Sequence record: MZ617138.1 | From: a phage | Direction: 5' to 3' (one strand) | Length of the DNA: 410 nt | In this document: positions 1-410 of the stretch, one piece after another | How positions within the stretch are numbered: the stretch's first letter is position 1 | Layout: each line of letters opens with the position of its first letter | The notes under the pieces: model-generated | The model's input: only the letters and a program-made list of their open reading frames with translations | Told to the model about the DNA's origin: nothing | Database searches by the model: none | Made by a program: the position numbers and the translations under genes

Positions 1-410
1 AGCGGTGATACATTGATGGTCTGCTGACTGCTGATGTGATGATTTTCGACATTGAAGACGCGATGAACCACTATGACGTGGCTGGCGAGTATTCCAACCA
101 GCTAGGTGAGGCTCTGGCCATCGCTGCCGACGGTGCGGTTTTAGCTGAAATGGCTATCCTGTGTAACCTTCCAGCTGCTCCAATGAGAACATTGCTGGCC
201 TAGGCACCGCCTCCGTACTGGAAGTTGGTACTAAAGCTGACCTCAATACCCCGGCTAAACTGGGTGAAGCAATCATTGGCCAATTGACCATTGCTCGTGC
301 GAAGCTGACCTCCAACTACGTTCCTGCTGGCGACCGTTACTTCTACACCACGCCTGATAACTACTCTGCAATCCTCGCGGCTCTCATGCCCAACGCCGCC
401 AACTACGCGA
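1..410 (+). CDS. Major capsid protein, T7 gp10A-like (HK97-fold capsid of T7-like podophage), internal fragment truncated at both window edges. Frame is interrupted twice as sequenced (apparent 1-nt deletions near 11/12 and 183/184), so it may be a pseudogene or carry sequencing errors.
   Basis: Hand translation. Frame 1, 1-11: SGDT. Frame 3, 12-182: IDGLLTADVMIFDIEDAMNHYDVAGEYSNQLGEALAIAADGAVLAEMAILCNLPAAP. Frame 2, 185-409: ENIAGLGTASVLEVGTKADLNTPAKLGEAIIGQLTIARAKLTSNYVPAGDRYFYTTPDNYSAILAALMPNAANYA. These align colinearly with T7 gp10A recalled from memory (TIDGLLTADVLIYDIEDAMNHYDVRSEYTSQLGESLAMAADGAVLAEIAGLCNVESKYNENIEGLGTATVIETTQNKAALTDQVALGKEIIAALTKARAALTKNYVPAADRVFYCDPDSYSAILAALMPNAANYA). 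Spacing between conserved blocks is preserved once one base is restored at each break. No database search was run. Confidence 0.85.

Follow-up and report, generated by a model that had tools for sequence, protein, structure and literature searches.

The window, by which we mean the whole 410-nucleotide stretch of DNA analyzed here, is identified by its sequence matches as a core fragment of the major capsid gene, 10A (Gp10A-like, HK97 fold), from a K1F-like Kayfunavirus of the T7 family. The fragment occupies positions 1–410 on the plus strand, the strand of every part of the gene described below, and its megablast, Pfam and PDB matches place it at approximately codons 90–226 of the 347-codon gene (CDS nucleotides ~267–677, with GTGATTACC at CDS nucleotide 271). 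Megablast against 50,697 phage records returned 223 matches, the top ones being gene 10A of K1F-like Kayfunavirus; at least 80% of the query was covered in 222 records, 81 phage records shared 90–95% identity, and the best matches are classed in Kayfunavirus. The top DNA match, EcoDS1 gene 10A, is 92.6–92.7% identical, and in this alignment 401 query bases correspond to 404 reference bases. For the protein comparisons, three placeholder bases were put back before translating. Against Pfam PF21703 (Gp10A-like; cut-off 27, E = 5.2e-49, profile positions 32–167 of 279) the repaired translation reaches 167.9 bits, and it is identical at 134/135 positions to residues 92–226 of the solved 347-residue capsid protein PDB 9vvq (E = 1.9e-81), with further colinear matches to 7y23 (residues 93–227) and to T7 gp10A (2xvr, residues 93–229). 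The preliminary description of this DNA had recognized a T7-like major capsid gene from the letters alone, and the megablast, PF21703 and 9vvq matches bear this out.

Across the whole window, the 10A genes of Kayfunavirus (K1F, EcoDS1, Penshu1, and CHX131; Autographiviridae/Autotranscriptaviridae, Studiervirinae) share 90.6–92.7% nucleotide identity with it. The window differs from them in lacking three bases that are present in every relative, and in bases 1–4 and the final base, which are unmatched. A degenerate pattern covering the window's own sequence recovered eight viral and four metagenome contigs, none closer than 90.5%, and a large protein search with the repaired fragment gave nine mostly fragmentary matches and no closer relative. 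Exact and gapped patterns taken from the window had no match in IMG/VR, and the truncated ORF of 54 and 55 amino acids gave no exact match. No DNA relative more than 92.7% identical was found in the collections searched, and the phage lineage from which the window came appears to be unsampled in them. We used 17 intact relatives for the comparisons that follow: EcoDS1, Penshu1, K1F, ZH4, the 12 viral and metagenome contigs, and CHX131.

A search of both strands against Rfam gave only sR3, at chance level (12.7 bits, E = 0.68; gathering score 41). The minus-strand open reading frames, 27–53 amino acids long, lie opposite a coding frame that is strongly conserved.

Position and size of the frame breaks

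Capsid homology in the window is split over frame 2 (the first few codons), frame 3, and frame 2 again, and no frame is open throughout. All 17 relatives, by comparison, read through both break sites in one continuous frame. With stop codons at 14–16 and 201–203, full-length capsid protein cannot be made from the record as written, as had been recognized at the outset.

The first break, at positions 9–12 in the alignment with the 17 relatives, consists of two single absent bases, one between positions 9 and 10 and the other between 11 and 12, and it moves the reading from frame 2 to frame 3. All 17 relatives have GTN ATY ACC ATT GAT GGT at this site, where the window has GTG AT- AC- ATT GAT GGT, giving the gap pattern GTGAT[T]AC[C]ATT, a shift of −2. 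Frame translation places a TGA stop in frame 2 directly after the break (positions 14–16); if the break were real, translation would terminate at about residue 94 of 347. The middle segment (positions 12–178) then carries capsid homology to the relatives in frame 3 (IDGLLTADVMIFDIEDAMNHYDVAGEYSNQLGEALAIAADGAVLAEMAILCNLPAA), and over its 167 nucleotides frame 2 contains seven stop codons.

At the second break, between positions 178 and 179 in the relatives' alignment, one base is absent from the third position of an Ala codon, GCTGC[A/T]TCC, and the reading passes from frame 3 to frame 2. The codon and its neighbor are GCA TCC or GCA TCT in 13 of 16 relatives and in CHX131, and GCT TCC in one relative (L015); in the other three a different amino acid is reported (ACA or GAA). 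A TAG stop in frame 3 lies past this break (positions 201–203, from the ORF list and frame translation), and the distal segment, aligned with the relatives over positions 179–409, has its capsid homology in frame 2 (SNENIAGLGTASVLEVGTKADLNTPAKLGEAIIGQLTIARAKLTSNYVPAGDRYFYTTPDNYSAILAALMPNAANYA). The two breaks are ~168 bp apart. Three bases are absent in total (−2 then −1, net −3), so that both flanks lie in frame 2. Because the middle segment has seven stops in that flanking frame, the net loss of three is not a compensated frameshift.

These alignments revise the earlier account of the lesions in several respects. It had proposed two −1 losses, where three bases are in fact absent (−2 then −1), as the 401 against 404 aligned bases indicate. 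The first had been drawn as a −1 loss at 'aca/att' (the slash marking the break) that changed frame 1 to frame 3, a placement rejected by the 17 relatives. For the second, the size of −1 was right and the position, 'cca a/at', was not, the relatives reading PAASNEN at this point and not PAAPNEN. The accompanying suggestion that each loss was of one A beside another also falls away, as no absent base need be an A from an AA pair.

The record seems unreliable and of low quality at both ends. In the alignment with the relatives, positions 1–4 read an anomalous AGCG where the relatives have GAAA or GAAG (Glu-Lys), the 16 other than CHX131 all having GAGAAR; read literally, this start would replace Lys with Ala, a change otherwise unseen that needs three nucleotide changes. 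No viral contig with GCGGTGATNACNATTGATGG was found. The last base of the record (410, A) is likewise unmatched in the relatives, which have G. Bases 1–4 and 410 more likely represent a read-end or trimming artifact, a chimeric junction or, at positions 1–4, sequence that is not homologous. The first break itself lies 9–12 bases from the record end and has only seven matching bases of support upstream.

Substitutions in the repaired gene

The closest comparison at the protein level is with Bacteriophage CHX131 (PV611674.1), a phage from human stool in Malawi with an intact capsid gene. By tblastn, the repaired translation is identical to the CHX131 capsid at 135/135 residues, the compared span being window positions 12–409 against positions 1522–1929 of the CHX131 locus. 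At the DNA level, 38 of 405 positions differ (9.4%), 35 of them at third and three at first codon positions, and every one of the 38 is synonymous. For this window, 25–30% of random substitutions are expected to be synonymous under neutrality, and the probability of 38 out of 38 is ~1e-20 to 1e-23. An identical protein despite 9.4% nucleotide difference thus implies extreme purifying selection on the capsid core.

The other relatives give a similar picture. EcoDS1, Penshu1, K1F, and ZH4 differ from the window at 29–36 positions, 25–31 of them third positions, corresponding to 24–30 synonymous and two to three non-synonymous codon changes. The recurrent non-synonymous differences, K to T and D to N (GTKADLNTP), are natural in the 12 intact phage and metagenome contigs. 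Compared with the 16 intact relatives other than CHX131, the repaired window has no private residue. It has 12 private bases, 11 of which are at third codon positions; the twelfth is the terminal base of the record. The window's lineage has therefore been under strict purifying selection along essentially the whole of its private branch, and the three frame-breaking deletions are superimposed on this without any amino-acid change beside them.

The same counts can be set against the number of missing bases. Bacterial mutation-accumulation data give substitution-to-indel ratios of 5–10:1. Had the gene been decaying with at least five substitutions per indel, it should have gathered ~11 or more non-synonymous changes, and the probability of finding none is at most 2e-5; at a ratio of 2:1 it is ~0.013.

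Origin of the frame breaks

We infer that the window very probably derives from an ordinary, functional Kayfunavirus capsid gene whose record carries three indel-type sequencing or assembly errors. The source would be a functional, lytic Kayfunavirus whose biological capsid gene is intact, and the record a short, low-quality read or a low-coverage contig. The three single-base deletions would have arisen during sequencing, base-calling, or consensus building and so have left the capsid frame in three pieces. The breaks are almost certainly technical because, with the bases restored, the translation agrees in every residue with the capsid of a living phage; repair recovers a conserved protein, with no sign of relaxed selection beside the frame breaks. 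Indel-type assembly or sequencing error was one of the two explanations offered in the preliminary description, and it is the one now favored.

As to how such errors might arise, two of the losses fall at two-base runs (TT and CC) and the third at a single A or TT; runs of two or more hold 39% of the bases of the window, so this homopolymer context is statistically uninformative. The longest homopolymers, TTTT at positions 43 and 139 and CCCC at 249, are correct. The classic miscall of long homopolymers (454, Ion Torrent, nanopore consensus) was considered as a mechanism and is unsupported, the four-base runs being correct. The 410-base length and the all-deletion profile would fit a single long-ish read as well as a consensus of very low coverage.

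The alternative that survives best is that the deletions are genuine and extremely recent, present in a defective genome, for example a dead-end mutant molecule caught by single-molecule sequencing or a capsid-defective variant complemented at high MOI. Had the deletions arisen after the last substitution, just this pattern would be observed; deletions cannot be dated from sequence, and the net change of −3 puts both flanks in one frame. We nevertheless consider this unlikely. Three single-base deletions would have to have occurred independently within 170 bp without any substitution, the stops of the middle segment rule out functional compensation, the garbled ends of the record suggest data of poor quality, and a defective genome in the minority would not ordinarily prevail in a consensus. 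A related possibility, quite unlikely in our estimation, is a capsid-defective Kayfunavirus with real deletions that survives through helper co-infection or as a carrier-state or remnant and is too recent to have acquired any other change. If the lesions were true, they would point to a capsid-defective T7-like genome surviving in nature, something out of the ordinary in a strictly lytic group.

The other explanation offered initially was a pseudogenized T7-like capsid gene in a phage remnant within a bacterial chromosome or plasmid. Several frame disruptions in a short stretch superficially resemble a pseudogene, and T7-like genomes do occur within bacterial assemblies (NZ_CP155630.1 and tiny contigs). 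However, such a gene should show relaxed selection, with ~72–75% of changes non-synonymous under neutral decay, where the comparison with CHX131 gives 0/38 and no residue is private to the window. The Studiervirinae are strictly lytic, which also counts against a remnant. No match to the capsid gene was returned, in near or distant mode, from 5,426 complete E. coli genomes, and a 26-mer from the window had no exact match in 185,579 GTDB species genomes; in the plasmid collection the sole match was NZ_CP155630.1, itself a whole phage genome, at 74.8% identity. Indels in real bacterial pseudogenes are mixed: 300 (43%) were insertions and 396 deletions, the deletions averaged ~19 nt, and the events were not concentrated in homopolymer runs (PMC6054270). 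The events in the window are all one-base deletions, unlike this spectrum, a weak comparison as there are only three of them. The synonymous-only pattern in effect excludes a decaying remnant, and we regard this origin as highly improbable. The preliminary description had held that the window alone could not distinguish the two explanations; this was too pessimistic, as the substitution pattern separates an artifact from a pseudogene.

That ribosomal frameshifting or transcriptional slippage yields full-length capsid protein from the sequence as written is scarcely credible, even though gene 10 of the T7 group has a known −1 ribosomal frameshift that makes 10B (annotated in EcoDS1 and Penshu1), a reading-frame change in the same gene family. 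The 10A/10B site has a slippery sequence, is conserved in relatives, and lies at the 3′ end of 10A (CDS nucleotide ~1026 onward), ~350 nt downstream of the window, whereas the breaks described here have none of these properties: no X XXY YYZ slippery heptamer occurs anywhere in the window, and the frame changes are absent from all 17 relatives. A −2/+1 and then a −1 shift in the core of an HK97-fold protein would, to our knowledge, be unprecedented.

With errors in the record as the preferred reading, the window carries little biological weight: its capsid gene is of the standard, highly conserved K1F-like kind, with breaks that are most likely technical. Its value is one of method, since 410 bases were enough to separate an artifact from a pseudogene. 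Two questions can be put to fragments of this kind, namely whether the substitutions are still purely synonymous, and whether the restored bases give a living phage's protein.

Indel errors and labels in related records

Frameshift errors introduced by sequencing have been described in T7-like przondoviruses by Elek et al. (PMC10438801). In the przondovirus Toyotomi, two breaks in one essential gene, that of the DNA polymerase, gave three ORFs, as in the window, and these base-level indel errors were cleared by short-read polishing (PMC10438801). The cases differ in that the Toyotomi errors were homopolymer errors of a long-read assembly, confirmed with reads (PMC10438801), whereas the window's long homopolymers are correct, the gene affected is that of the capsid, and the errors are deduced from the sequence.

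A second precedent is provided by NZ_CP155630.1, a 38,276-base record named 'Yersinia pestis plasmid unnamed' with 25 listed features, which is a T7-like phage genome. Its capsid region (2711–3764 of 15018–21417, reverse complement) is broken into ORFs of 85 and 236 amino acids, and the scaffold and portal genes are likewise split. Against OR671232.1, a sister phage at 98.7% identity, its capsid gene shows two deletions of one base each and an insertion of 12 nt. Like the window, NZ_CP155630.1 has capsid single-base deletions near the codons of the first break (…KHTEK/VITIDG…); unlike the window, it belongs to another lineage (74.8% identity), is a full-length genome with a 12-nt insertion, and has intact sisters at 98.7%. 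We considered whether the shared break region is meaningful and judge it a coincidence, as both the lesions and the lineage differ.

Labels for this capsid gene clash among deposited phage genomes (L004, positions 1231–2274): it is a 'scaffold protein' in Hafnia phage yong1, a 'capsid and scaffold protein' in ZH4, a 'hypothetical protein' in vB_EcoP_F, and a 'minor capsid protein' in many Salmonella phages. The record MT350292.1, 'Enterococcus phage EFA-1', with Enterococcus faecalis as its stated host, has a capsid gene 91.3% identical to the window; an Enterococcus host is implausible for a Kayfunavirus, and the record may reflect contamination or mislabeling. Contigs of 281–605 bases with T7-like capsid fragments are also filed under Cutibacterium acnes and Escherichia coli, as partial proteins. 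These are short orphan records like the window, and they probably represent phage or vector contamination of bacterial assemblies.
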